Positions 38,010 through 50,406 of a stretch of 64,000 nucleotides of DNA are shown here, in pieces. Within the stretch, counting starts at the first letter, position 1. Each line of letters starts with the position of its first letter. Under the pieces are notes generated by a model. The model did not search any database. It was not told where the DNA came from and saw only the letters and a list, made by a program, of their open reading frames with translations. The DNA is from Candidatus Parcubacteria bacterium. GTDB taxonomy: Bacteria > Patescibacteriota > Minisyncoccia > UBA6257 > 2-01-FULL-56-20. The stretch covers positions 93,758 through 157,757 of the forward strand of contig DAIDJL010000002.1 in assembly GCA_027450205.1 (NCBI GenBank), written 5' to 3'. Both the position numbers and the translations under genes were made by a program.

Positions 38010-39593
38010 TTATTTTCCGTAGACGGAATGAACTTCGATCGGCAGGTCGGTGAACCGCGCCACCATCACCGGGATCTCCGGCGCGACAATTCCCCATCGC
38101 TTCACGAACGCAGAAGCTTTTTCATAATCGCCCTCAAGCTGGATCTTCAAAAACTCTTCGCTCAACCCCATCATCGCCGCAAGGGTCTTTTGGGGGTCGA
38201 TATCGAACATCCCCTTGGCTTCGTCGTAATTCACCGCGCCGTGATGCTTCATCCAATTATATTCAATGAGCGATCCTTTGGCGTGCGCCTCGGCGTAATT
38301 GACACGCCATCCCGGCAAAAAAGCGGCGACCTCGTAAACGGCGCAACCTAAAAGCTCCTCTCGCGTCAGAAGCCCCTTCTTTTGAAAATGATCAAGCAGC
38401 GCAACCCCGAGCATATCCGCCTTTGCTTCTTCAAGCGCAGAATGCAGATCTTTCAGCAGTACCTCAAAGCCGACCTCTCTTCCATTCACCTCCCGCGTTC
38501 CGGGACCGATGCCGTGCGCGAGTTCGTGGCCAAGCACAAAGAGTAAACGATGGCGGGACTGCATTCCTTTGAATGCATCGGCGCGCAAAACCCGTTCTGC
38601 GATAGGGCGCGTTAGAGCGTTGAATTTTGCGTCCATCATTGTTTTGGAAAAGACCTTCTTTGACCCTTTTGCTTCATGGATCTTCCGATTGTTCGGTAAA
38701 TTGTATGCAACAAACTGCCTGCCAAACGCCGCTTCGCCACCGCGATACACGTCATGAACGATTTCCATCGGCGACGCGGCGCCTTTTGCCTTGTATCCAA
38801 AACGCTTTGCGAGCAGAGCGTCGAATTCCGGCAGCGCGGCGGCGAATTTTTGCAGCTCCGCACCGGCCACACGATCCGGCATGGCGATGAACGCCTCAAA
38901 TGTCGCCTTGATGCCGAATAATCCGTCGGCATAGACCTCATATGGCCCGATCGTCACTTCGAAAGGGCTGCCATCCGTATCGATCCACGCAATATCGCTT
39001 TCCCAATAATCATTGGAAAGGAACGCGTCCGCGCGAAGCAAGAGGAATTTTTTAAGGGTGCCTTCGGGCAGCAACGCCGCGGCCGCGCGGAGCTCCGCCG
39101 CCGCCGGTTCGAGAAATTCTTTATACGCCTCGCTGTACGGAACGGCGATGAGCGCGCCTTCCCTTCGCCGTATAACGGTATAGTTGCTCTCAAAGCTTTC
39201 CCGGTCTTCCGGATGCGCCGCAAGCCAGTCGTTCCATTCCGCTTCCGTAAGGTCGGCAGGATAGAATGCGCCCGCCTTCGGCTTTGCGCCGATACCCGGC
39301 ACGAACGGCCTATCCTCGTTGAAACCGTCCCACGGCCCGCCGTTCAGGTCGAAATATTTCGCGAGGACGATACCTTCTTCGTCCGCGCGTGCGGCAAGCG
39401 CCGCGCGGAGTTCCAGATTTTTCGGGTCCATCTGCGCCAGGTAAAGATCGGTCAATATCTTTGCCGCCGCGACGCAGTGATCCAATGCCGCACGCTCGCT
39501 CTCCGTAAGCGCTGAAAGGTCCGGCGCAACATCAACGAACGCGATCCTGCCAAGTGATTCTTTTAATTCCGCTTCCCAATCCCTTGAAGACAT
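38010..39593 (-). CDS. M49 (dipeptidyl-peptidase III)-like zinc metallopeptidase
   Basis: HELAHGIG and EEAKAD zinc-binding motifs, 527 aa. Confidence 0.6.
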   Translation of the reverse strand: MSSRDWEAELKESLGRIAFVDVAPDLSALTESERAALDHCVAAAKILTDLYLAQMDPKNLELRAALAARADEEGIVLAKYFDLNGGPWDGFNEDRPFVPGIGAKPKAGAFYPADLTEAEWNDWLAAHPEDRESFESNYTVIRRREGALIAVPYSEAYKEFLEPAAAELRAAAALLPEGTLKKFLLLRADAFLSNDYWESDIAWIDTDGSPFEVTIGPYEVYADGLFGIKATFEAFIAMPDRVAGAELQKFAAALPEFDALLAKRFGYKAKGAASPMEIVHDVYRGGEAAFGRQFVAYNLPNNRKIHEAKGSKKVFSKTMMDAKFNALTRPIAERVLRADAFKGMQSRHRLLFVLGHELAHGIGPGTREVNGREVGFEVLLKDLHSALEEAKADMLGVALLDHFQKKGLLTREELLGCAVYEVAAFLPGWRVNYAEAHAKGSLIEYNWMKHHGAVNYDEAKGMFDIDPQKTLAAMMGLSEEFLKIQLEGDYEKASAFVKRWGIVAPEIPVMVARFTDLPIEVHSVYGK

Positions 39594-39614: not shown

Positions 39615-39635
39615 AGTTTTCCATTAAGCTCAACC
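39615..39635. repeat. Copy 1 (partial) of the AGTTTTCCATTCCGCTCAAC intergenic repeat family
   Basis: agttttccattaagctcaacc; on the minus strand it lies about 40 nt upstream of the M49 peptidase start. Confidence 0.5.
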
Positions 39636-40696
39636 TAAGGGAATAGTCCCTGCTGTGCCTTCAATCCTTCTTTCAAGGCTCGATTGATCATAAAATCAAT
39701 ATTCTCATTGGTATTGATCGCTTCAATTTTCGTATCCGGATTATGAATCCGCCAGACTCTGAAGATCTCATCTCCAAACCCTTGCCCGATTGATTTGATA
39801 TGGGCAAAATCAAGAACCACTTTTTTAAATCGCTCAAGGCCGGTCATAATACGCCGCGCCTGTGAACGAGAAATATAAAGTGTCCCCATTTTATAAAGCT
39901 TGACTGCAACCTTGGTTTTATCGAATTCATATGAGCTCGTGCTGTATTCCCCGAAAACCTTTTCAAGATCTCTATCGGAGTCCAAAGAGATGTTGAAGAT
40001 AACCTTCGTGCCCCGCCGATTTTTAATATCACGCACAAAAACATCATCGACAATATTGTTGAACGTCAATTCTTTATTCGAACTTTTAATAGTGAACGCA
40101 TCAGCAACTTTTGAAGTAAAAAATATTCCTTCTCCGGTATGATGTTCTGGATCAGTGGTTTCTTTTCCCTTTAGAAGATCCTGTATGGCCTCAAGTTCAT
40201 TCCTCAATCCACGTTTCGTCATGATGTGATGGAAAATACCGACACCAAGATCATTTATTTCGAAACGAAATTGCCCTTTATCACGGCGGACCAATAATTC
40301 GATGTCTTTTGATTGGGAGTGCTCTATCGCATTATTGAGCATTTCAGTAAAAGCGTATGCGGTAATTCTAAGGATATTGTCCGGAAGATCGATAAAAATC
40401 CCCGTGTCTCTTTTGAGAGCATCAAGTACCACATCCTCCGAGAGGCCTTCATTGTGCAAAAATCGATGGAACTGCTTTACTTTCTTTCTTGCTTTAAGAA
40501 GCGCCCCCTTTTCGGCAATAACATAGACTGCCTGATTGGCCCTCCCTAAAAGAGCGATCCTTCCCTCTTCCCTGAGCTCTTTTAGGAAGCGATGGAGATA
40601 CTGCTTGCTTATATTCAAACGCCCTTCGAGGCGTTTAGCCCGTATCTCTTTCTCGGTCTTTATAATATCCAGTATTTTCTGCTTAAGCGGGGTCAT
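39635..40696 (-). CDS. wHTH - HATPase_c-like - STAS-like (DUF4325) three-domain protein
   Basis: N-terminal LNISKQYLHRFLKELREEGRI (wHTH); central NNAIEHS ... DLGVGI (GHKL ATPase N- and G-boxes); C-terminal DUF4325-like region; 353 aa. Confidence 0.55.
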   Translation of the reverse strand: MTPLKQKILDIIKTEKEIRAKRLEGRLNISKQYLHRFLKELREEGRIALLGRANQAVYVIAEKGALLKARKKVKQFHRFLHNEGLSEDVVLDALKRDTGIFIDLPDNILRITAYAFTEMLNNAIEHSQSKDIELLVRRDKGQFRFEINDLGVGIFHHIMTKRGLRNELEAIQDLLKGKETTDPEHHTGEGIFFTSKVADAFTIKSSNKELTFNNIVDDVFVRDIKNRRGTKVIFNISLDSDRDLEKVFGEYSTSSYEFDKTKVAVKLYKMGTLYISRSQARRIMTGLERFKKVVLDFAHIKSIGQGFGDEIFRVWRIHNPDTKIEAINTNENIDFMINRALKEGLKAQQGLFP

Positions 40697-40769
40697 ATTG
40701 TTTACAACTTTATCCTATATCTAAAAACAAAAGTTGTAAACTAGTTGTATACAAGGGCAATAGATGGGG

Positions 40770-40793
40770 AGTTTTCCATTCCGCCCAACTCCC
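40770..40793. repeat. Copy 2 of the intergenic repeat family
   Basis: agttttccattccgcccaactccc. Confidence 0.55.
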
Positions 40794-40911
40794 AGATACC
40801 ACGGAATGACGCTGGAAGATTTATTAAGGGATTATATAAACTTTGCTATATTTAAAAACTATGTTATAATTGCCTCGTTCTCAACCGATCTTTGTAATGA
40901 GAGGAGTCAAG

Positions 40912-41433
40912 ATGCTGAAGTCAAAAGTTGGGATAGTCTTTGAGGAAAAACAGATTCTTACCCCAAGCAACATCGCAGCCTCAAAAAAACGTGCGGCAAC
41001 CAATAAGAGGGTGCGGGTCGAGCCGAAATCCGACATGGAGCTTCTGACGGATTTCTTTGTTCAGGGATCGTACCATTACGAGATCATTCCGGACATCTCC
41101 GAGGGCCATCTCACATTCGCGGCAGACATGATCGTGCTTCCACATCGCACAAAAATAATACCTTCCGGTATCAACCCTGGCGAACGAGCGCATATGATGA
41201 ATGATGAAGATTATGTCGTTCGTCTGGTTCCAATATCCGGACGGGTAAAACAAGTTAAGGTCAATGGCTCTGGAACGGTAACAAAATCCTTTTGCCGAGT
41301 ATGGGAGATATCCTCTGCCAAGGCGTGGTATCTGTACATATTTTTCGAGGTTCCGCCAAATCCCCTTGGCCCAATTGAAATCCCGGAGGATTTCAGAAAA
41401 TACCGGGAGTTAAAACTGCCCAGGGGAAGCTAG
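40912..41433 (+). CDS. Hypothetical protein (173 aa)
   Basis: GAGAGGAG SD then the ATG at 40912 (MLKSKVGIV...); no family recognised. Confidence 0.4.
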   Translation: MLKSKVGIVFEEKQILTPSNIAASKKRAATNKRVRVEPKSDMELLTDFFVQGSYHYEIIPDISEGHLTFAADMIVLPHRTKIIPSGINPGERAHMMNDEDYVVRLVPISGRVKQVKVNGSGTVTKSFCRVWEISSAKAWYLYIFFEVPPNPLGPIEIPEDFRKYRELKLPRGS

Positions 41434-41513
41434 GTGCTGCAGGGATTCGGACTCTCCGCCAAGTAGCGAAATGCGAACGGCGGTTTTTTTATTTTGCGGC
41501 GGACGAACAAATA

Positions 41514-41569
41514 AGTTTTCCATTCCACTCAACTCCCCCTCCTTTGGCCAAATTCAGCAAACTCAAATA
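41514..41569. repeat. Copy 3 of the intergenic repeat family (long form)
   Basis: agttttccattccactcaactccccctcctttggccaaattcagcaaactcaaata. Confidence 0.6.
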
Positions 41570-41760
41570 GCCCAATATTCATAAGGAAATCGGGCTCTTT
41601 TGATCCGGCTCTTCCGGTCAAGTGGAAGCGGGCGGAAGCTCACGCGCTCACTGCGTTCGCTTTTGAGAACCCGCGGTTCTCAATACTCTCCTACACGGGA
41701 GGGGCAGCCTGCCCCTCCCGACCCCACCCCTCGTTCGATTCCGTCTACATCGAGCGATAG

Positions 41761-41825
41761 AAAATAAAACAGGCATGTTCGCCGAACGGTCCATCTTGGG
41801 GAGGCGAACATGCCTGTTTTATTTT
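41761..41825. terminator. Long perfect inverted repeat acting as a bidirectional terminator-like hairpin
   Basis: 16-bp arms aacaggcatgttcgcc / ggcgaacatgcctgtt with a 19-nt loop, flanked by an A-run and a T-run. Confidence 0.5.
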
Positions 41826-41937
41826 CTATGGTGGAGCTGACCGGACTGACTGGCAAACTCTAGTAAACGAATTATATATTCAAGTGAAACTAATGGCGGT
41901 AATGTCCTAATGGCGGATGCTCCGAGATCCAAAATAG

Positions 41938-42465
41938 CTAGCCCTGAAAACCAGCTAACATATAAACAAGGAGCATTGCGGCGAAATATAACACTGAAAG
42001 AATGATAAAAATGATACCTGCGGTTTTAGCCACCACAGATTGGCGGCGGATCATTATGATCGATAGCAATAGGACAAGCGCGTTTATCCAAAATCCCATG
42101 GTGGCAATATATAACGGGATGGAGAATCCTGGATGAGCGGCTTTATATGTCCCATTGAGAATCGGCGGCAAGATAACCCCGGCTAAAAATACGAGCGCTG
42201 TGACAATTATTTCTCTGACGCTTGATGAAACGATTTGTGACGGCTGGGATTGTATGATTGTTTCTTTTTTCGCCGGAATAAATGCCATTACCGAACCCAC
42301 TATCATAAGGATCGGTATCCCAACATAGGAAAAGAATATGAGCATCACTCCGATCTTCTGCAAAAAAACAATCCCTGACGCGCCGCCAATCATTGCACAT
42401 ACGTCAAGAGCAAACCATAGGAAGGCAAGGCCCAACAGTCTTTTCCCAATCCTCTCCTGACTCAT
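41938..42465 (-). CDS. Hypothetical polytopic membrane protein (175 aa)
   Basis: 5-6 TM helices; upstream TTGGAT-16-TAGAAT promoter-like sequence embedded in repeat copy 4. Confidence 0.45.
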   Translation of the reverse strand: MSQERIGKRLLGLAFLWFALDVCAMIGGASGIVFLQKIGVMLIFFSYVGIPILMIVGSVMAFIPAKKETIIQSQPSQIVSSSVREIIVTALVFLAGVILPPILNGTYKAAHPGFSIPLYIATMGFWINALVLLLSIIMIRRQSVVAKTAGIIFIILSVLYFAAMLLVYMLAGFQG

Positions 42466-42501
42466 AGATAAATTCTAGCAAATTAAGGCGGAAATCCAAA
42501 A

Positions 42502-42557
42502 AGTTTTCCATTCCGCTCAACTCCCCTTCTTTTACGAAATTCGGCAAACTCAAAATA
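42502..42557. repeat. Copy 4 of the intergenic repeat family (long form)
   Basis: agttttccattccgctcaactccccttcttttacgaaattcggcaaactcaaaata; about 85% identical to copy 3. Confidence 0.6.
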
Positions 42558-42604
42558 ATGCAGATATATAAAGAAAATCGACCTCTTTCGGAGATCGATT
42601 TTCA

Positions 42605-42750
42605 TTCAAGTGGACATGGTTGAAAAAAGTTGGAACCGGGTGGAAAGTTGGATTTTGGAGTGGGGCGAGGCGATACAGGAAAGAAAAATGGCGAGGAATT
42701 ACTAGAGGTTCCTCGCCCCTTGGTACACATGATGGAGATTGAACCCTGTC
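42605..42750. repeat. Direct repeat D1 (about 140 nt)
   Basis: gtggacatggttgaaaaaagttggaaccgggtggaaagttggattttggagtggggcgagg...ggtacacatgatggagattgaac; paired with D2. Confidence 0.65.
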
Positions 42751-43458
42751 TTATTGTAATTGGGCGAGCGCTTCATTAATCCCCTTGAGCATTTCCTCGT
42801 AGAGCTCCTTAAGATTTACGCTATCTTCCGGCCTATGTTTTGCTTCGGCCAAAAATTGCGAAACAGGAATTTGCATGTCTCGAATAATTTCCTGGCTATG
42901 CTCCTGAATGTAACGGCTTCGCCCCTTCCATTCACCAGATGCTATTTTCTTTTTTACCTCACCCCAAAGGTCTCTCATCATGGCAGCACCGCTATTATCG
43001 CCCAAATCCTCATAAAGACCTTCCGCCCATCCATAGTCCTGCGTTAATAGAGCATAATCCAAACAAATTTGAAGAGCTGGACGATAAGATTTCTCCATTG
43101 GAAATTGATCTCTGAGCGTGTTAGAACCTTTTCGAACCTGATGTCCTAAAATGCCCCCAACCTCATACAAGTCTCCCCTGCTCAGAGCGGATGATACATT
43201 TTGCATTTCAAACATAACTCCCTTGGGAAGGATTTCTTCCCCTATCCTTTGCGCTAAATTTTCTGCGCCGAGTTCTCTATAGTCCTCAATAAGCTCGGCG
43301 GCAATAGTCATCTCAAAAGCATGGCTTTCTGACGCATGTTCCACCGCTGCTTCTATTCGCTCCTTGCAATGCTTTAAACTTTCAATCAAATCATGCCTTT
43401 CGACCTCAGATAATTGCCTATCCTTGCTAGAAGATTGTTCAAAATCATTTTGGCTCAT
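42751..43458 (-). CDS. Hypothetical acidic protein (235 aa) flanked by direct repeats D1 and D2
   Basis: ORF with protein-like composition; no family recognised. Confidence 0.45.
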   Translation of the reverse strand: MSQNDFEQSSSKDRQLSEVERHDLIESLKHCKERIEAAVEHASESHAFEMTIAAELIEDYRELGAENLAQRIGEEILPKGVMFEMQNVSSALSRGDLYEVGGILGHQVRKGSNTLRDQFPMEKSYRPALQICLDYALLTQDYGWAEGLYEDLGDNSGAAMMRDLWGEVKKKIASGEWKGRSRYIQEHSQEIIRDMQIPVSQFLAEAKHRPEDSVNLKELYEEMLKGINEALAQLQ

Positions 43459-43577
43459 ACTCCTATTGTGCCCCGCTTAAAACAAAAAGTATAGACGCAA
43501 TCGAAGGTTTTCTTTCTTAAAGGTTCTAAACTACAAACATCTGCATTCCAGCAAGATAGGTTTTATCTATCTTAAAA

Positions 43578-43720
43578 TCGCCGTGGACATGGTCGAAAAA
43601 AGTTGGAACCGGCTGGAAACATGGATTTTGGAGTGGGGTGAGGTGATACAAGATAGAAGAATGGCGAGGAATCATTAAAATTTCTTGCTGTTCGGTACAC
43701 ATGATGAAGATGGAACTTTC
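43578..43720. repeat. Direct repeat D2 (about 140 nt, roughly 85% identical to D1)
   Basis: gtggacatggtcgaaaaaagttggaaccggctggaaacatggattttggagtggggtgagg...ggtacacatgatgaagatggaac. Confidence 0.65.
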
Positions 43721-43838
43721 TTAAAGATTGAGATTTATCGAGACCCCTGCTGGGAGGGCGAATGAAACAAAACGGCTTATTGACTCGTATACCCAATAGG
43801 GTATAATGGTTGATAGGTCGATAAAACAATGATAAAGC

Positions 43839-44279
43839 ATGGAAATAATCTATTATCGGAGCGGGTCTGGCTCCTGCCCAGCCAGAGATTATATGGGCTT
43901 GCGCTATGGAATCAGGAGTGGCGACAAGCAACGGGTACGGGACAGCAAAGCAAAGCAACTTGCAAAAATACGGGCAGTGATTCAGATGGCGGCAGACAAA
44001 AATGGAAGGCCAGGTGGGATTTTTTCTTCCTCGCTCGATGGATATAATTTCCACGAATTAAAAAGCAGTGAAGGTAATAAAAATGAAAAACTGAGAGTCC
44101 TATACTTTAGCTATCATGGATCGCAGCTTGTTCTCTTGAACGCCTTCGATAAGCCAGACTTATACGAGAAAGGAAAGAAGAAAAAAATTGATAAGAAAAT
44201 TGAGTTGATTCTAAAGCTGACCAAAACGTATTACGATGATTTTTTAAAGAATCCAGACCATCACGAAAAATATGAATAA
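43839..44279 (+). CDS. Type II toxin, RelE/ParE superfamily (HigB / Gp49-like)
   Basis: KLRVLYFSYHGSQLVLLNAFDK motif; 8-nt overlap with the downstream HTH gene. Confidence 0.65.
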   Translation: MEIIYYRSGSGSCPARDYMGLRYGIRSGDKQRVRDSKAKQLAKIRAVIQMAADKNGRPGGIFSSSLDGYNFHELKSSEGNKNEKLRVLYFSYHGSQLVLLNAFDKPDLYEKGKKKKIDKKIELILKLTKTYYDDFLKNPDHHEKYE

Positions 44280-44775
44280 GAAAATTAACAAGAAAAAACA
44301 AGGGTTGGATTTAACCTTAAATCACCCCGCTTATAAGAAGTACTATGGCATGATGGATGCCCGGGTGAAACTTGCCGTTGAAATAAACGAAGCGAGAGTT
44401 GCAAAGGGTTGGTCTCAGCAGGAACTAGCGAGTGAGGCTGAAACCACACAAAAGGTAATCTCAAAAATTGAGAGTGGAGATACCAATCTTGGCTTCGATT
44501 TGCTGAATAAGCTTGCAAAGCCTCTCAATCTTAGGCTTCAAATCGGCACGACGGTTTTTGTAGCTGGTCTTGAACCCACCGTGGTTAATACAAATTATTG
44601 TGCCCCCGAATCAATTCCCGCGGGTATTTATCCCCGTGTATCAAGTGACATGAAATGGGAGTCATATATCCCGACAGGTATCCGCTTCATTGAGTCCCCC
44701 GCTTTGCTACAGATAACCTCTACCGAAGAAAAAACGGATACAAAAATTGAAATTAATGAAAAAGCCTATGCCTAA
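44272..44775 (+). CDS. XRE-family HTH antitoxin (HigA-like) with an extra C-terminal extension of about 90 aa
   Basis: GWSQQELASEAETTQKVISKIESG helix-turn-helix. Confidence 0.65.
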   Translation: MNKKINKKKQGLDLTLNHPAYKKYYGMMDARVKLAVEINEARVAKGWSQQELASEAETTQKVISKIESGDTNLGFDLLNKLAKPLNLRLQIGTTVFVAGLEPTVVNTNYCAPESIPAGIYPRVSSDMKWESYIPTGIRFIESPALLQITSTEEKTDTKIEINEKAYA

Positions 44776-45286
44776 ATCCCAGATAAGAAAAATTCAACAT
44801 GTATGGTCTATATTGGCCAGTGGCGTGAGCGTTGATCAGGAAAGCAATAATCTTAGCCTGTTTAATGTCATCGACCAAATTGTAATCCCCAAAAATCAAC
44901 TGGTGGAAATGCCTATTGTAACTGGAGAAAAGAAACCAGCCATTCCGATAGGTTTTGTTGTTGTATCTCAGTGGAGAAAGCTCCAAGAAAATATTGATGT
45001 AAAGGGGGACGCTAGGATAGAGTTGCTTGATCCGAGTGGTACCATGCGACAAAAAGCAGAGTTTACCATAAATCTTCCTGGTAAAATTGAACGATTTAGA
45101 TCGAGGGTGCAGTGGGGTGGAATTAGAGTAACTACCTCCGGAACTTACATCTTCAAAATTTCCCTCAAAGAGGAAGGGCAGGACGAATTCGTCCCCGTTG
45201 GAGAAGCTTATTTGAAAATTCAGATAATCGAGAATGCTTCAAAGGGCAGAAAAATAAACGTTAAGGTGCGCAAAAGGACTAAATAG
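44756..45286 (+). CDS. Hypothetical protein
   Basis: 176-aa ORF; start ambiguous (MKKPMPKSQ). Confidence 0.35.
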   Translation: MKKPMPKSQIRKIQHVWSILASGVSVDQESNNLSLFNVIDQIVIPKNQLVEMPIVTGEKKPAIPIGFVVVSQWRKLQENIDVKGDARIELLDPSGTMRQKAEFTINLPGKIERFRSRVQWGGIRVTTSGTYIFKISLKEEGQDEFVPVGEAYLKIQIIENASKGRKINVKVRKRTK

Positions 45287-45325
45287 CCGAGCGCTAGAAA
45301 TCTTCTAGCGATTCTGTGCGTTGAA

Positions 45326-45811
45326 ATGAACGAGGCGATACGTCAAAGCACATACGAACGGCGCAAGGCGGCAATTCTCGCTCGCATCCACATTAGCGAC
45401 TATATACGCCGTTACGCATGGGAAGTATTCGGAAACCAACGGAAGCCTGTTATGAGAACTCGCGCCGACGCCGATTATTATAAAAAAATGTTTAGCAATC
45501 CCATAGGCTCGCCTATACGCTCCCTCCTCCATATTTCTTCCGGTAATCTTTACAAATATAGCCAAGATGTAGATTATATCTGTTCAAATCTGGGCAGCGG
45601 TTTCGTATTTTATTTTTTATGCGTTTGGTGCGGCCGGAGGACAAAGTATCTTTATGTCGATCAAAGCCTTGAAGCATTACTCTGCCGGAAATGCATAAAG
45701 TTTCCATATCCACAACCCACACGACCCGAACGAAAGGCCTCCAGATATTTACGAAGGCATCCTGAGGTAATTCAACAACTCATCAATTCAGGCAAAATTC
45801 CCGCGTACTAA
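45326..45811 (+). CDS. Hypothetical Cys-cluster (zinc-ribbon-like) protein
   Basis: CVWCGRR ... CRKC; 161 aa. Confidence 0.35.
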   Translation: MNEAIRQSTYERRKAAILARIHISDYIRRYAWEVFGNQRKPVMRTRADADYYKKMFSNPIGSPIRSLLHISSGNLYKYSQDVDYICSNLGSGFVFYFLCVWCGRRTKYLYVDQSLEALLCRKCIKFPYPQPTRPERKASRYLRRHPEVIQQLINSGKIPAY

Positions 45812-45814
45812 GTC

Positions 45815-46372
45815 CTATTGAGACGGTACGCCAGTATACTGATCTCCAAAATCATCTACACAGGTAACTTTAAAATCATCAACGGTCGAAAAACTGTAAG
45901 AGCCTGGTATCGTTATTGTTTGTTGTTCTCCTGCGGGGGCAAAGGTGGTTTGTGAATATGGGATTGCTGCGCTACCTGCCGCCCACGTCCACGTGCAGGT
46001 CGATCGATTTCCGCGAGGTACAGTTAGGTAGAATGTGTCCCCGACACCCGAATAAACTGGCATTGTGTTGCCATTTGTGCTTGCGGTAGGTGTAGGAGAA
46101 ATCGGTGATGGGACGGACGGTTGGGTAGATGTATTGCTTGTAGGATATGCACTCACTACCCAAATAACGAGGCCGATGAACGCGATGAGCGCTATGAGAA
46201 GGGTTGTGAGAATGGTTTTGCCCGCCGCCTTCCTTCCAAACGCGAGCCATACACCTACTACGACCAACAGAAAGATAATAAATACCGTCATGGCGTTTGT
46301 TTTTAAATGATCTAATATCCTATCGCTTCTGCTTGTATATCCTCGCCTTCTTTCTGCGCCGACGCATAACAA
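45815..46372 (-). CDS. Hypothetical membrane-anchored secreted protein
   Basis: N-terminal TM helix (MTVFIIFLLVVVGVWLAF), Ser/Thr/Pro-rich linker, C-terminal Cys-containing domain. Confidence 0.4.
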   Translation of the reverse strand: MLCVGAERRRGYTSRSDRILDHLKTNAMTVFIIFLLVVVGVWLAFGRKAAGKTILTTLLIALIAFIGLVIWVVSAYPTSNTSTQPSVPSPISPTPTASTNGNTMPVYSGVGDTFYLTVPRGNRSTCTWTWAAGSAAIPYSQTTFAPAGEQQTITIPGSYSFSTVDDFKVTCVDDFGDQYTGVPSQ

Positions 46373-47454
46373 TCAAGTGAGTTCTGCTCTGCCTCAATTC
46401 CCCCCTCGCCTTCGCCTCGTGAGAGTGTCACTGAAGAGCATTGTTCATTTTGTGTTTGTTCGGATTCAATTTGAGATTCGGTACTGGGAGCTACCTGAAT
46501 AGCGTCATCAATTTTCTCCTGGTTCTGAGCGTCCTGTAAGGTGAGTTGGGCGGCACTCAATTGCGAGCTATACGCTTGATTAAGGTTATTTTGTTCGCCT
46601 TCTTCTTCCTGAAGAGGTATACCTCCTCCGCCTTCAATATCAGCTAAATCTTGCGCATACTGCTTTTCCAGATTTTCAAGATTCTGTGCCGAAGTATTAA
46701 CTGCGGCGGTGTCGAAATTTAGATAGGTTGCGTTTAGTTGGGGTACTGTTGGTTGCGCATAGGTTGGCTGAGGCGCAGGAGTATTGTAGGTTTCGGTTGG
46801 TTGCGAATAAGCTTCTGGTGCAGAGATGGTCAAAGCATTCCTCACTGTGAACGACCCGCCATCGGGATTGGTGACAGTGACACCGTATGTCCCCGCCGGA
46901 AGCGATCCTGGGTAACTTACCGACATTGAATTTGGCGAGGTGCTGTTAGTATTTAATTTCGCAAGACCTCCGATCATTAAAGTCGCGCCGTTTTGAAAGC
47001 CACTACCGACAATTGTAAGTGTATTAGAATTTCCCTGAACAATAATGCTTGGATTAATATAGCTGATGGAGGGCGATGAAACGGTTGGGCTGGTGGTTAC
47101 AACAGGCGCCTGTGAAGTGTCATTACACGAAGTCCCACTACACCCATTAGACGGATGAGGTGGAAGCGGACTAACGACTATTTGCTGGTGTGGGGTTGTT
47201 ATCGGTTCGGACGGGCCTGTTGGAGTAGTCGCTGATCCAGCGGTGAGCGCGGTGGATGTTTTTTGTGTGGACGGCGAGGTAGTTGCTTCTGGTGATGATG
47301 TTGAGTTCGCCTGTTGAACAGCGATTTGAGAAGTTTGACTAATTGGGGTCGTTGTAACGTTTTGAGGTGCCGCAGAAATAAACCCAATCAAAGAGACTAG
47401 GCCAACAAACGAGATGATTGCTTTATGGAATAACGAGCCAAAGAAATTGACCAT
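46312..47454 (-). CDS. Secreted Ser/Thr/Pro-rich surface protein with an IPT/TIG-like domain
   Basis: Signal/TM N-terminus; NPSIIVQGNSNTLTIVGSGFQNGATLMIGG ... GVTVTNPDGGSF; acidic Q/E-rich C-terminus. Confidence 0.55.
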   Translation of the reverse strand: MVNFFGSLFHKAIISFVGLVSLIGFISAAPQNVTTTPISQTSQIAVQQANSTSSPEATTSPSTQKTSTALTAGSATTPTGPSEPITTPHQQIVVSPLPPHPSNGCSGTSCNDTSQAPVVTTSPTVSSPSISYINPSIIVQGNSNTLTIVGSGFQNGATLMIGGLAKLNTNSTSPNSMSVSYPGSLPAGTYGVTVTNPDGGSFTVRNALTISAPEAYSQPTETYNTPAPQPTYAQPTVPQLNATYLNFDTAAVNTSAQNLENLEKQYAQDLADIEGGGGIPLQEEEGEQNNLNQAYSSQLSAAQLTLQDAQNQEKIDDAIQVAPSTESQIESEQTQNEQCSSVTLSRGEGEGGIEAEQNSLDCYASAQKEGEDIQAEAIGY

Positions 47455-47716
47455 GTTGATTCGTTAAGTTCTCGACTGGCGAACAAAAAGCTCCCAGCCA
47501 GCGATGCCTTTCGACACCCATATCCCTTTCGAGATATGACCGTTCATGGCGCTCTGACTAGGAGCTTTTTACCATGAACGGTATTTTGCGCCATGCACCA
47601 TCTTTGGCTGATAAACAGCTAGATAACAGTGTTTAGGCGACTGTATTAAATTGTTCCTTCAATATAGCACCAACTGAGCCTCTTGGTAAATGCGCACGAT
47701 TGTTTATAATATAGCC

Positions 47717-47989
47717 ATGCATTTCCCCGATCGTGCTGTACATTGTCCCGGATGCGGTAAGGTTATGGGGCGTTATAACCCCGAGAAGCCTTCGCCTTTG
47801 AAGTGTAGAAATCCTCGCTGTAAAGCTGAATTAGAGGTAACGATTATCAAAATGACCAAAGATGGGTCAGGAGCGGAATACATGAATTTTACGACCAGGG
47901 GAACGACAGCGAACTTAGTAACAACAAACCCCTCAGTTGACAATCCTTCAAATGGGTATATTATTACCAGCGAGGGGTTAGATAAATAA
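47717..47989 (+). CDS. Zinc-ribbon small protein
   Basis: CPGCGKVMG ... CRNPRCKAE; TATAAT immediately upstream; terminator at 48053-48107. Confidence 0.4.
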   Translation: MHFPDRAVHCPGCGKVMGRYNPEKPSPLKCRNPRCKAELEVTIIKMTKDGSGAEYMNFTTRGTTANLVTTNPSVDNPSNGYIITSEGLDK

Positions 47990-48309
47990 GTTTGAAAATT
48001 AGCTCGGTTTAAGAGGCGCTCAACCGGATACGATTGCCTGAGCGCGATAAAAAGACCTTTGGTAAGAGCATGTAGATTACATGCCCCCTGCCGGAGGTCT
48101 TTTTTTGTTTCTCCACGCCGAGCCATGCACGATGCTATCACTGGAAAAATTAAAGGAATTAGATACAGAAAATGACCTCTCGGACGAGGAACTTCTTGAG
48201 GTGCGCGCTGCTCTTGATCCCATTCTCGAAAAAATCCTAAATCATTATTTTGATAGCCTTTCAGAATAAACATCTTGCTATATTACAACTAAGCGGTTAG
48301 AATAAGAAT

Positions 48310-48462
48310 ATGGATAAAAAGACGATCAGTAAGGTTATGCGGGAAATGGGACGCCGCGGAGGGCTTGCATCCGTAAATGCCCGTAAGAAAAGCGGGAAAA
48401 TGAAGGAGTGGTCTCAAAATGCTATTAAGGCCCGACGCCGGAAGAAGAATAAAAAAACATGA
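48310..48462 (+). CDS. Small basic protein (50 aa) translationally coupled (ATGA) to the serine recombinase; possible recombination directionality / DNA-binding factor
   Basis: MDKKTISKVMREMGRRGGLASVNARKKSGKMKEWSQNAIKARRRKKNKKT; TTGCTA-17-TAGAAT promoter at 48277-48305; absent from the ORF track because it is under 60 aa. Confidence 0.4.
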   Translation: MDKKTISKVMREMGRRGGLASVNARKKSGKMKEWSQNAIKARRRKKNKKT

Positions 48463-50042
48463 GCGAACTTCACGCCTTAATTTACTGCCGCGTCTCATCT
48501 GAGCGACAAAAGAACGAGGGCCACGGCCTCGACAGCCAAGAGCAACGTTGCCGTCTTTATTGCGGCCAAAAGCAATACAAGGTTGAGCGTGTCTTTAGGG
48601 ATAGCTTTACGGGGGCCGGAGATTTTATGGAACGCCCAGCGATGGGAGAATTGCTCGCCTACCTCGACAAGCATCCGCACAGGGATGATTACGTTGTCGT
48701 TTTCGATGACCTCAAGCGATTTGCCCGCGACACCGTTTTTCATTTAAAGCTCCGGCGTGAATTTAAGGCACGGGGCGTTAAAGTGGAGTGCCTCAATTAT
48801 AAATTCGACGAATCCGAAGAGGGTGAATTTATCGAAACCGTTTTAGCCGCACAGGGCGAGCTTGAACGGAAACAGAATCGCCGCCAAGTTATCCAGAAGC
48901 AAAAGGCGCGCCTTGAAGCTGGCTATTGGCCTTTCTGTCCGCCGCCTGGCTATCGTCAGCCCAAGACGGTGGCTCATGGAAAACTTCTTACGCCATACGA
49001 GCCGGAAGCCACGATCGTGAGAACAGCCCTTGAGGGATTTGCGACAGATCGGTTTGAGACGCAAGCGGACATGGCCCGCTACTTGGGAGAACAAAACTTC
49101 ATCGGCAAAAGCAGGGTTCCCTTCCAGCTAGCAAATCGTCTCTTGGCCCGCGTATGGATATATGCCGGATTTATCCAATATGAGCCGTGGGAGGTAGTAC
49201 GACGGCAGGGCCACCATGAGCCAATCATCGACCTAGCGGCTTATCATAAGATTTTACGAAAGCTCGAAGGTCGCAGTCCGGTAAGGACGAGGGTAGATAT
49301 GCGCGAGGACTTTCCTTTACGCCACACACAGATCGCATGTGGCAATTGTGGTCGGCCCTTTACTGCTTCATATACGACCAAGAAAAAGGGCTATAGGCGG
49401 CCTTATTATCGTTGCGCCAATACTGCATGCCCTGAACACACAAAGAGCATCCCTGTCGAGCTTATAGAAACACAATTTAAAACCATGTTGCAGGAGATCC
49501 GCCCGAAGCCCCTCATCCTCAAAATCAGCGAAGCGATGCTCTACGAGAAATGGGAGCGGCGTGTGTCCGAGCGGGCTAATGCCGAAAAGAAAGAGGTTGG
49601 CGAAATTGCAGGGATTCAGGCAGAAATACACGACCTCTCAAAGCTTGCACGGAAAGCGACCAGTGAACGCGTCCGGCGGGAGTATGAGAAGCAGATCGAG
49701 GAACTAGCGGCGAAGGAGGAAAAATTGGCGGAGAAAAATGATCCTACAAAGAAGCCAAAAATTGAGTTTAGAACCGCTCTACAAATGGTATTCGATTACC
49801 TAAAAGACCCATATTCTAAATGGGTTGAGGGCGATTTGAGTGAGAAAAATCTGGTGCTGAACCTCGTTTTTGAGGGTCTCGTTTTCTATGACCGAGGATT
49901 TGGATTTAGAACCGCTCTTTTGTGCCTTCCTTTAAGGGTTTTTGAGCATTTTACTACCTCTAAATCACAGGGTGTGGAAGCGGGCGGAATCGAACCGCCG
50001 TGTAAAGATAATGCCGATGGGCCGTCTACGAGCGTAGTTTAG
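48459..50042 (+). CDS. Large serine recombinase (resolvase/invertase N-terminal domain + recombinase domain + zinc ribbon)
   Basis: YCRVSSERQ catalytic serine motif, CGNCG ... C ... C zinc ribbon, coiled coil; 527 aa. Confidence 0.85.
   Translation: MSELHALIYCRVSSERQKNEGHGLDSQEQRCRLYCGQKQYKVERVFRDSFTGAGDFMERPAMGELLAYLDKHPHRDDYVVVFDDLKRFARDTVFHLKLRREFKARGVKVECLNYKFDESEEGEFIETVLAAQGELERKQNRRQVIQKQKARLEAGYWPFCPPPGYRQPKTVAHGKLLTPYEPEATIVRTALEGFATDRFETQADMARYLGEQNFIGKSRVPFQLANRLLARVWIYAGFIQYEPWEVVRRQGHHEPIIDLAAYHKILRKLEGRSPVRTRVDMREDFPLRHTQIACGNCGRPFTASYTTKKKGYRRPYYRCANTACPEHTKSIPVELIETQFKTMLQEIRPKPLILKISEAMLYEKWERRVSERANAEKKEVGEIAGIQAEIHDLSKLARKATSERVRREYEKQIEELAAKEEKLAEKNDPTKKPKIEFRTALQMVFDYLKDPYSKWVEGDLSEKNLVLNLVFEGLVFYDRGFGFRTALLCLPLRVFEHFTTSKSQGVEAGGIEPPCKDNADGPSTSVV
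49976..50003 (-). other. tRNA 3'-end-like fragment (T arm plus acceptor strand) embedded in the recombinase 3' end
   Basis: Minus strand reads ggcgg-ttcgatt-ccgcc-cgcttcc-a; no matching 5' half was found. Confidence 0.4.
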
Positions 50043-50406
50043 CGATGCTAAGCGAAGTGATCATATTTTCACGCCAAGCGTATGATCGTCAACCTGACGC
50101 TAGTCCCCTTATATAAGACCGGTATCGATCCAAGGAACCCGGATCGGCCGATCCCTCCGGTTATGCGTTAAGCAAAAGCGAAGGCTGGAACTCGATTAGA
50201 GTTGGCAGTGTAGATTGTGCAGCGATGACGACGCTGCCAACGGCTCGCAAACCCATGGATTATCTTTATCGAAGCCAATGCGCTCCCGAATATCGTGCCT
50301 TCGATAAGGCTGCCGCTATTATACCACGAATAATGCTAGAATAAAAGTATGCAAATATGCTGCACCAAAGGTCGAAGAGTTTAAAGCTAATGATTTTTTA
50401 ATCTTT

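Follow-up and report, generated by a model that had tools for sequence, protein, structure and literature searches.

The 64-kb stretch of DNA analyzed here, which we call the window, comes from a Candidatus Parcubacteria bacterium (assembly GCA_027450205.1, contig DAIDJL010000002.1, positions 93,758 to 157,757) and carries a short repeat whose 24-nt core recurs four times within 3 kb. All four cores are found in an array of low GC content that has a peptidase M49 gene on one side and the gene for transfer-messenger RNA (tmRNA) on the other. The low-GC block spans ~39.6-50.0 kb, with a GC content of about 0.40-0.47 compared to 0.55-0.60 outside: at 39.6 kb it falls from about 0.58 to 0.40, and at the other end the low-GC foreign DNA starts directly at the tmRNA 3' end, where a large serine recombinase (LSR) gene is found. 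Throughout, 'forward' means the direction of the tmRNA gene, i.e. the minus strand of the window. The features on which the argument turns are:

38010-39593, minus strand: peptidase M49 gene, left boundary of the low-GC block
39615..39638, minus strand: core copy 1, an orphan core with 20/24 positions kept, overlapping the TAG stop of the HATPase/wHTH gene
40770..40793, minus strand: core copy 2, an orphan core with 23/24 positions kept and unique flanks on both sides
41514..41637, minus strand: flank module 3, with core (41514-41537), extension to ~41569, decayed hairpin region, TTGA (41621-41618) and 16 nt of tmRNA end (41622-41637)
42502..42614, minus strand: flank module 4, with core (42502-42525), extension to 42557, terminator-like hairpin (42573-42603), TTGA (42609-42606) and the crossover pentamer TCCAC (42614-42610)
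48459-50042, plus strand: LSR gene (Resolvase, 5.5e-25, and Zn_ribbon_recom), abutting the tmRNA 3' end
49972..50287, minus strand: intact, full-length tmRNA gene (97.8 bits), 3' end ...GGTTCGATTCCGCCCGCTTCCAC, right boundary of the block and integration target

Searching the whole window for the core pattern AGTTTTCCATTCCRCYCAAC with <=3 mismatches returned exactly four matches, all on the plus strand, at 39615, 40770, 41514 and 42502 (2, 1, 0 and 0 mismatches, respectively), whereas the expectation from shuffled sequences was 0.01 copies and no shuffle gave four. The four-copy family reported in a preliminary description of this DNA is thus real. Neither a position weight matrix scan nor an nhmmer profile scan of the 64 kb revealed a fifth copy, and Rfam scans at gathering and E-value thresholds gave no match to the repeat or its module. 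The ~55-nt extension said to be common to copies 3 and 4 was confirmed at 87% identity across 55 nt (41513-41567 vs 42501-42554), but the similarity actually runs on to about 115-125 nt, with 'CAAGTGGA' at an equal offset of ~+100 nt in both. In copy 3, CAAGTGGA leads into GTGGAAGCGGGCGGAA (41622-41637), which is exactly the last 16 nt of the tmRNA gene (49974-49989).

The nature of the copies emerges from a comparison with relatives, that is, Minisyncoccia/Paceibacteria metagenome-assembled genomes and contigs from peat and soil metagenomes. The exact core was sought as a 20-mer in public genomes and metagenomes, and extra tmRNA loci were gathered via a neighboring bPH-domain gene; loci fetched from public collections are numbered L001 to L054. 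The exact core was found at 27 loci, 14 of them in relatives and 13 single matches in unrelated taxa, the latter being about the number expected by chance. Relatives hold 1-3 core copies, always at the tmRNA locus, and in L005, L019, L024 and L045 hairpin, extension and core are contiguous with an intact tmRNA gene. The order of the flank in relatives is ...GGTTCGATTCCGCCCGCTTCCAC, TTGA, a terminator-like hairpin with T-run, a ~55-nt extension with TTTGAGTTTGCCGAAT, and then GGGAGTTGAGCGGAATGGAAAACT, the reverse complement of the core as first described. The flank of window copy 4 (42499-42614) shares 89-92% identity with the tmRNA flank of L005, L024 and L026. Judged by this similarity, module 4 is the orthologue of the relatives' tmRNA flank, and copy 3 is an older flank copy in which 16 nt from the 3' end of the tmRNA gene persist; a case that the preliminary description had set against itself, remnants of a duplicated fragment, comes close to the true nature of these two copies. 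A core-like partial 12-mer in L019 (11205-11228) belongs to the beginning of a thymidine kinase gene and was put down to chance, and scans of viral contigs for the core and for the LSR-island junction gave no match.

In L029, the flank is part of a clean tandem array of three units, each opening with ...CCAC/YTGA (the slash marking the junction), followed by hairpin and core. Unit 1 runs from tmRNA...TCCAC / CTGA-hairpin-core through a 208-aa gene to a distal arm ending ...CGCTCCAC; unit 2 consists of / TTGA-hairpin-extension-core, a terminator and a short distal arm ending ...CCTCCAC; and unit 3 of / CTGA-hairpin-core, TAGTTTACAA repeats and a wHTH-HATPase gene. Units 1 and 2 therefore close with a distal arm ahead of the next crossover site, and L001 holds two stacked units of the same form. 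Over all loci, we counted 19 distinct core-bearing units, 17 of which have a fixed core-to-TCCAC distance in one of three classes (83-86, 117-118 and 37-38 nt). Units measure ~0.2-1.7 kb, often contain a single gene and mostly lack an integrase. Their distal arms, of which we distinguish PB and PA, contain CCGGTTC, a mimic of the tmRNA T-arm GCGGTTC, and always end in ...TCCAC. The target, read from the sequences, has the dyad symmetry TCGATT-N9-TCCAC-N9-AATCGA, which fits a serine-recombinase site.

The locus bears the marks of a tmRNA island (Islander / ssrA-GI). Within the window, there is an intact, regenerated tmRNA target, a recombinase gene beside it (open reading frame (ORF) 48459-50042), a GC step, and displaced direct tmRNA 3' ends at the boundaries, namely the 16-nt repeat at 41622-41637 and TCCAC-TTGA at 42614-42606 with its orthologous flank. 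Presence/absence polymorphism at the attachment site is seen among the relatives. Over the 7292 nt that lead up to ...CGCTTCCACA, L053 and L054 have 99.96% identity, and beyond this point they are unrelated; L053 shares the window's LSR (86% nucleotide identity) and junction sequence, both of which are absent from L054. L044 and L045 likewise part immediately beyond the tmRNA end, and in L037 and L026 a 32-bp scar lies between the tmRNA gene and the flank.

Because the same sequence directly follows the tmRNA gene in relatives and tandem units occur there, we read the repeat family as the tmRNA-flank arm of serially accreted, mostly integrase-less units, and have high confidence that serial accretion at the 3' end of this gene reiterated the tmRNA-flank module and gave rise to the four copies. 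Comparison with relatives shows the units, their stacking and the crossover point. In its full form, the explanation holds that the repeat is the conserved outer end, or 'core', of a short module after the tmRNA gene in this Paceibacteria clade and was spread by unit integration, which we consider very probable. Small integrative units would recombine into the pentamer TCCAC at the extreme tmRNA 3' end, with attP reconstructed as PA arm-TCCAC-ACCCTGTGATTTAGAGG... and attB as tmRNA end-TCCAC-TTGAATGAAAATCGATC... Every unit would bring a replacement flank of (C/T)TGA, a terminator-like hairpin, sometimes the ~55-nt extension, and the core GGGAGTTGAGCGGAATGGAAAACT, followed by cargo, usually one gene, and a distal arm with a mimic of the tmRNA T-arm and ...CTCCAC at its end. 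As each integration would push older units farther from the tmRNA gene, flank modules and cores would pile up as same-orientation repeats. Orphan copies 1 and 2 may then have been produced by core-to-core or core-adjacent recombination.

Read forward, the window comprises the tmRNA gene, the LSR island, a satellite unit, the module-4 unit (copy 4, membrane protein, PB arm), a ~190-nt remnant, the 16-nt tmRNA end with module 3 (copy 3), the reverse gene at 40912-41433, core 2, the wHTH-HATPase-DUF4325 gene, core 1 and the peptidase gene. The features not listed above are:

42615..49973, minus strand: LSR island and one satellite unit, with a HigB/HigA-like pair, HTH genes, a TIG-domain protein, a LOOT RNA and the LSR gene; the LSR island proper runs from 49973 down to 43588, with a PA arm at its end
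43582 down to 42615, minus strand: satellite unit with hairpin, gene 42751-43458 and a second PA arm; no core
42615..42744 and 43588-43716, minus strand: distal PA arms, 90% identical to each other
41938..42465, minus strand: gene for a 175-aa membrane protein, the cargo of the module-4 unit; it has a promoter-like site of its own, TTGGAT-16-TAGAAT, and its ATG is 6 nt past the -10 box
41829..41925, minus strand: distal PB arm of the module-4 unit, ending ...CAGCTCCACC, kept in L001, L005, L007, L027 and L029
Remnant of ~190 nt, following the PB arm: holds a perfect 27-bp hairpin
40912..41433, plus strand: gene of unknown function between cores 3 and 2, reverse to the array, with its own extended -10 box
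39635..40696, minus strand: wHTH-HATPase_c_2-DUF4325 (STAS-like) gene between cores 2 and 1

The LSR ORF enters the tmRNA gene for ~70 nt on the opposite strand, and its last 22 codons (residues 506-527) lie inside it. As these codons are antisense tmRNA, the C-terminus of the LSR must differ between the integrated and the excised form. The ORF thus crosses the integration junction, and its terminal 22 codons match the tmRNA loci of island-free relatives. For the tmRNA gene itself, the tag peptide given by ARAGORN (GGIGRSGFLG..., 50130-50170, minus strand) looks wrong; the tag read from the gene, GCC AAC TCT AAT CGA GTT CCA GCC TTC GCT TTT GCT TAA, is ANSNRVPAFAFA followed by a stop, in agreement with ANSKVAAPSFAFA and stop in L029. 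Within the LSR island, a Gp49/HigB-like gene and an HTH_3 gene with an 8-nt overlap (43839-44775, plus strand) likely form a toxin-antitoxin pair, and a LOOT RNA (Rfam RF03000, 85 bits; 47503-47639, minus strand) lies between the TIG-domain gene and an unknown gene; part of the LOOT RNA region is also kept in the LSR island of L053 (9394-9431). The PB arm joins varied downstream DNA in the five relatives that keep it. Directly after the arm in the window lies the perfect 27-bp inverted repeat (41757-41783 / 41803-41829, 19-nt loop), which gave spurious microRNA-family matches in Rfam and could represent either a terminator that acts in both directions or what is left of another element.

At the distal end of the low-GC array, marked by core 1, the array appears to have run into the host gene. 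Relatives lack a core ahead of their peptidase gene and align to the peptidase M49 of the window only from residue 9 onward; core 1, together with the 21 nt that follow and the initial eight peptidase codons, is therefore probably array DNA fused to the host gene. These eight codons (39570-39593, minus strand) and the region upstream align with no relative, and array DNA seems to have taken the place of the gene's own 5' end. Among the cargo, homologues of the wHTH-HATPase gene (39% aa identity) come after a core in L011, L013, L015 and L023, as does, in L029, a 352-aa gene that likewise has HATPase_c_2 and DUF4325 domains. Exact-protein look-ups for three cargo proteins and the window's own bPH protein returned no match, and PADLOC assigned no defense family to the cargo genes. 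Two further loci deserve mention: at the tmRNA hot-spot of L007 (5839-7744), a CBASS-like SMODS/AGS_C gene stands with a SLATT_4 effector gene, and L037 (15790-17191) has bAvd and a reverse-transcriptase gene, as in a diversity-generating retroelement, near an Nramp gene.

But what is the role of the core within these units? When 12 long modules are aligned, no block is better conserved than the core, and the conservation breaks off sharply after AAAACTT. Between most lineages, 22-24 of its 24 positions are identical (18-21/24 in the divergent L029 and copy 1 variants), while identity across the tmRNA loci of these lineages is no more than about 78-82%. All three module classes end in the core, which, together with TCCAC-YTGA, is the only sequence common to these otherwise non-homologous modules. 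In addition, modules and cargo assort independently: the same cargo follows unrelated modules in L001a/L046 (90% identity over 394 nt downstream of the core, nothing upstream), in L011/L015, and in L011 or L015 versus L029 unit 3, and the same module is joined to unrelated cargo in >25 pairs. Conservation, sharing among unrelated flanks and independent assortment together show the core to be, by all appearances, more than a passenger. We infer that it is a protein-binding cis site of the units, most likely an accessory site or a second recombination site, and that it would form the junction where flank modules and cargo reassort, a role that we put forward less firmly than accretion itself. 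Carried further, the tmRNA gene might anchor an integron-like cassette platform, in which tiny integrase-less units are caught at TCCAC by LSRs acting in trans and the core is a second, dedicated recombination site for the exchange of modules and cargo. Such a site would account for the orphan cores and for the way in which modules and cargo assort independently; we offer the platform as a tentative and rather doubtful idea.

Two weak hints of a recombinase half-site, noticed post hoc at p about 0.01-0.02, come from the likeness of the core, as its reverse complement, to the tmRNA 3' end, which 91/5000 shuffles equal, and from its likeness to the short module's right half-site (TGAACGGAAT vs TGAGCGGAAT), which 48/5000 shuffles equal. 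A forward tRNA-3'-end-like fragment, TTCAAATCCGCTCAATTCAC, right after the tmRNA end in L028 (11325-11350) is 16/20 identical to the reverse complement of the core and may be a clue to its origin. Core copy 2 makes the palindrome CATTCCG-N18-CGGAATG, centered on the left edge of the core, an observation read from the sequence post hoc. An arm-type site, in the form of a motif that the core would share with the extension (GAGTTTGCCGAAT) and with the PB arm (GCGGTAATG, opposite strand), is no more than an idea, as the resemblances need indels and are statistically unconvincing. A small ORF from the ATG in the core, with GGGAG as Shine-Dalgarno sequence, was rejected: it stops after 4-40 codons, shows no conservation and in several variants has AGG instead of ATG.

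Several observations weigh against this account, most of them concerning the core. Copies 1 and 2 have no TCCAC, hairpin or distal-arm signatures, and a short-word BLAST of their flanks against all fetched loci gave chance-level matches only; the origin proposed for them is one that we infer. No orphan core was seen in a relative, and for the small units neither an excised circle nor an empty site was observed. Sites of ~40-50 bp are normally all that large serine recombinases need, and the core, lying at a variable distance of 37-118 nt from the crossover, misfits such a canonical site. Coreless units exist (L028, L042/L044, L053/L054 and the satellite unit of the window, 43582-42615), so the core is not required for integration. 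Homologous recombination in the flanking homology, without crossover inside the core, could also give the assortment, and the sharp edges and unique flanks of the orphan cores, which have no counterpart in relatives, make the proposed core role weaker.

The preliminary description had favored a portable promoter/regulator cassette. In this scenario, the core would be a promoter or operator for the minus-strand gene downstream, acting as a -35 element or as a site for an island regulator, e.g. the wHTH-HATPase protein. The core indeed lies upstream of minus-strand genes in copies 1, 2 and 4, although at 21 nt (peptidase, ATG 39593), 73 nt (HATPase/wHTH, ATG 40696) and 36 nt (membrane protein, ATG 42465) rather than the 40-90 nt given; copy 3 instead faces the terminator of the plus-strand gene 40912-41433. 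A forward ATG-ORF begins 21-108 nt after the core in 12/19 units, and since a terminator-like hairpin opens each unit, the cargo needs its own promoter. In a few units, TGGAAA of the core stands 16-18 nt from a -10-like hexamer: copy 1 (TGGAAA-18-AATAAT), L026 (17, TATAAA) and L007 (18, TATACT). Occasional use of the core as a -35 element is thus possible in this minority. However, there is no -10 box within the core; the best one lies 7-24 nt from the core end, in unique DNA, and with this varying distance neither TTGAGC nor TGGAAA of the core has a fixed -35 geometry. Likewise, the repeat holds no -35/-10 hexamers 16-18 nt apart as expected of a sigma-70 promoter cassette: the TTGGAT-16-TAGAAT sequence ascribed to copy 4 exists (42499-42472, minus strand), but outside the repeat, in unique DNA between core 4 and the ATG. 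A terminator or reverse gene follows the core in 7/19 units, including window copy 3, and promoter-like matches in the region (9) are about as many as expected from shuffles (8.3).

As a binding site for the wHTH protein, the core is outdone by the TAGTTTACAA repeats between the core and the ATG of the wHTH-HATPase gene. They are kept in L011, L015, L029 and the window, even though the proteins are only 39% identical. The window has them as a 12-nt perfect inverted repeat (40701-40712 / 40731-40742) and relatives as 3-5 direct copies (L029 12495-12580; L013 and L015 downstream of the core), and they are probably an autoregulatory operator of the wHTH domain. All in all, we find a promoter or operator role improbable as the explanation of the repeat. 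What stands of the earlier proposal is the portability, as the repeat rides on mobile units, while the copies reflect the recombination history of the tmRNA 3' flank and not a promoter cassette. Could the cores instead be functionless, as the slowest-decaying part of hitch-hiking old flank modules, with copies 1 and 2 left by random deletions? Module 3 is decayed compared to module 4 (77-81% vs 89-92% identity to relatives) and its hairpin is poor, and relic attachment-site fragments are common in tandem islands (PMC3146451). Yet neutral decay predicts graded similarity, and copy 2 is identical at 23/24 positions and then random on either side; the near-identity of the core in lineages with diverged tmRNA loci and its presence in three module types sharing nothing else also make this very unlikely. 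Scarcely credible is a last scenario, in which islands entered a plus-strand tRNA-like gene, now lost, on the left side of the array and left the copies behind as direct repeats of its 3' end. Read as its reverse complement, TTCCATTCCGCTCAACTCCCC, the core does resemble the tmRNA 3' end TTCGATTCCGCCCGCTTCCAC (best local match 10/11, 91/5000 shuffles as good) as well as the tRNA-end-like fragment in L028, but the similarity is weak and was noticed post hoc. Moreover, peptidase coding sequence and no tRNA gene or remnant occupies the left end, and in relatives a single core follows the tmRNA gene at a fixed distance, in the opposite orientation.

Several known classes of repeats were also rejected. 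CRISPR arrays are regularly spaced 25-40-nt repeats with 25-50-nt spacers, whereas successive cores are 1155, 744 and 988 nt apart, with a gene in every interval. Dispersed elements of the repetitive extragenic palindromic (REP) and miniature inverted-repeat transposable element (MITE) type have many copies genome-wide and terminal inverted repeats or target duplications; the copies here are confined to 3 kb near the tmRNA gene, and the rest of the 64 kb has none. Integrons consist of an IntI tyrosine recombinase, an adjacent attI and a Pc promoter, and their attC sites are 57-141-nt imperfect palindromes (R''-L''...L'-R'). Like integron arrays, the units described here are mostly single-gene and split by a recurring short site; GTTGAGC in the core fits the GTTRRRY core-site consensus, and the HATPase stop overlaps core 1, as is often the case with attC. 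However, Pfam scans of 20 ORFs at 34.3-51.3 kb revealed a serine recombinase only and no tyrosine recombinase, no IntI or attI was found among the ORFs scanned at 34-51 kb, and the core is not an imperfect palindrome of attC length. The orphan cores are 20-24 nt with unique flanks, and upon folding only the terminator-like hairpin, outside the core, is stable. Unlike integron cassettes, the cassettes here have their own promoters and mixed orientation, on a platform of tmRNA gene and serine recombinase.

The closest described system are the ssrA genomic islands (ssrA-GIs) of Dehalococcoides: tandem islands downstream of a single tmRNA gene, bounded by a 20-bp direct repeat of its 3' end, with a CcrB-like serine recombinase of ~540 aa beside attL, integrase-less units proposed to be cis-mobilizable, and extra conservation around each repeat (McMurdie et al. 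2011, PMC3146451). The present locus shares the tandem stacking at the tmRNA gene, the 3'-end repeats, the serine recombinase, the integrase-less units and the extra conservation around the repeats. It differs from the islands as portrayed in that text by its crossover at the acceptor end (TCCAC) instead of the T-loop; by an identity block of mostly 5 nt, and 16 nt once, instead of 20 bp; and by units of ~0.2-1.7 kb, often with one gene, instead of multi-gene islands, and without a six-gene integration module. The separate 24-nt core 37-118 nt from the crossover is a further difference, no such element being mentioned for ssrA-GIs in the consulted part of PMC3146451. The concept of cis-mobilizable elements and accretion of integrative elements, as cited there, also fits in part: integrase-less segments with functional or relic attachment sites lie beside an integrase-bearing element that could mobilize them, but the units here share conserved arms outside the attachment site (PB, PA and the flank module with the core), which sets them apart from the concept in the form given there. 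Finally, the tycheposons of Prochlorococcus are cargo elements at tRNA/tmRNA genes that use tyrosine or large serine recombinases, where successive integrations push older ones inward and partial tRNA remnants are scattered in islands (Hackl et al., bioRxiv 10.1101/2020.12.28.424599). Stacked integration at a tmRNA gene and displaced target remnants are common to both systems, whereas tycheposons carry integrases and often replication modules, of which most units here have neither; the host here belongs to the candidate phyla radiation (CPR), and a non-tRNA repeat, the core, recurs beside the tRNA-end remnant.

Known tandem integration at a tmRNA hot-spot thus largely explains the repeats as relics and arms, whereas the crossover position, the tiny units, the CPR host and the separate core set the present case apart. 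The residual puzzle lies in the function of the 24-nt core and the source of its two orphan copies; as a concrete cis element that can be tested, the core goes beyond what is known of serine-recombinase sites. A serine recombinase with a short, well-defined site at the tmRNA end is also of practical interest as an integration tool. CPR bacteria have tiny genomes, and to our knowledge few mobile elements have been described from them. For these bacteria, a tmRNA-anchored stack of single genes would be a compact route to gain and swap accessory genes, among which we saw membrane proteins, the wHTH-HATPase regulator, toxin-antitoxin pairs and, in a relative, CBASS-like defense genes.

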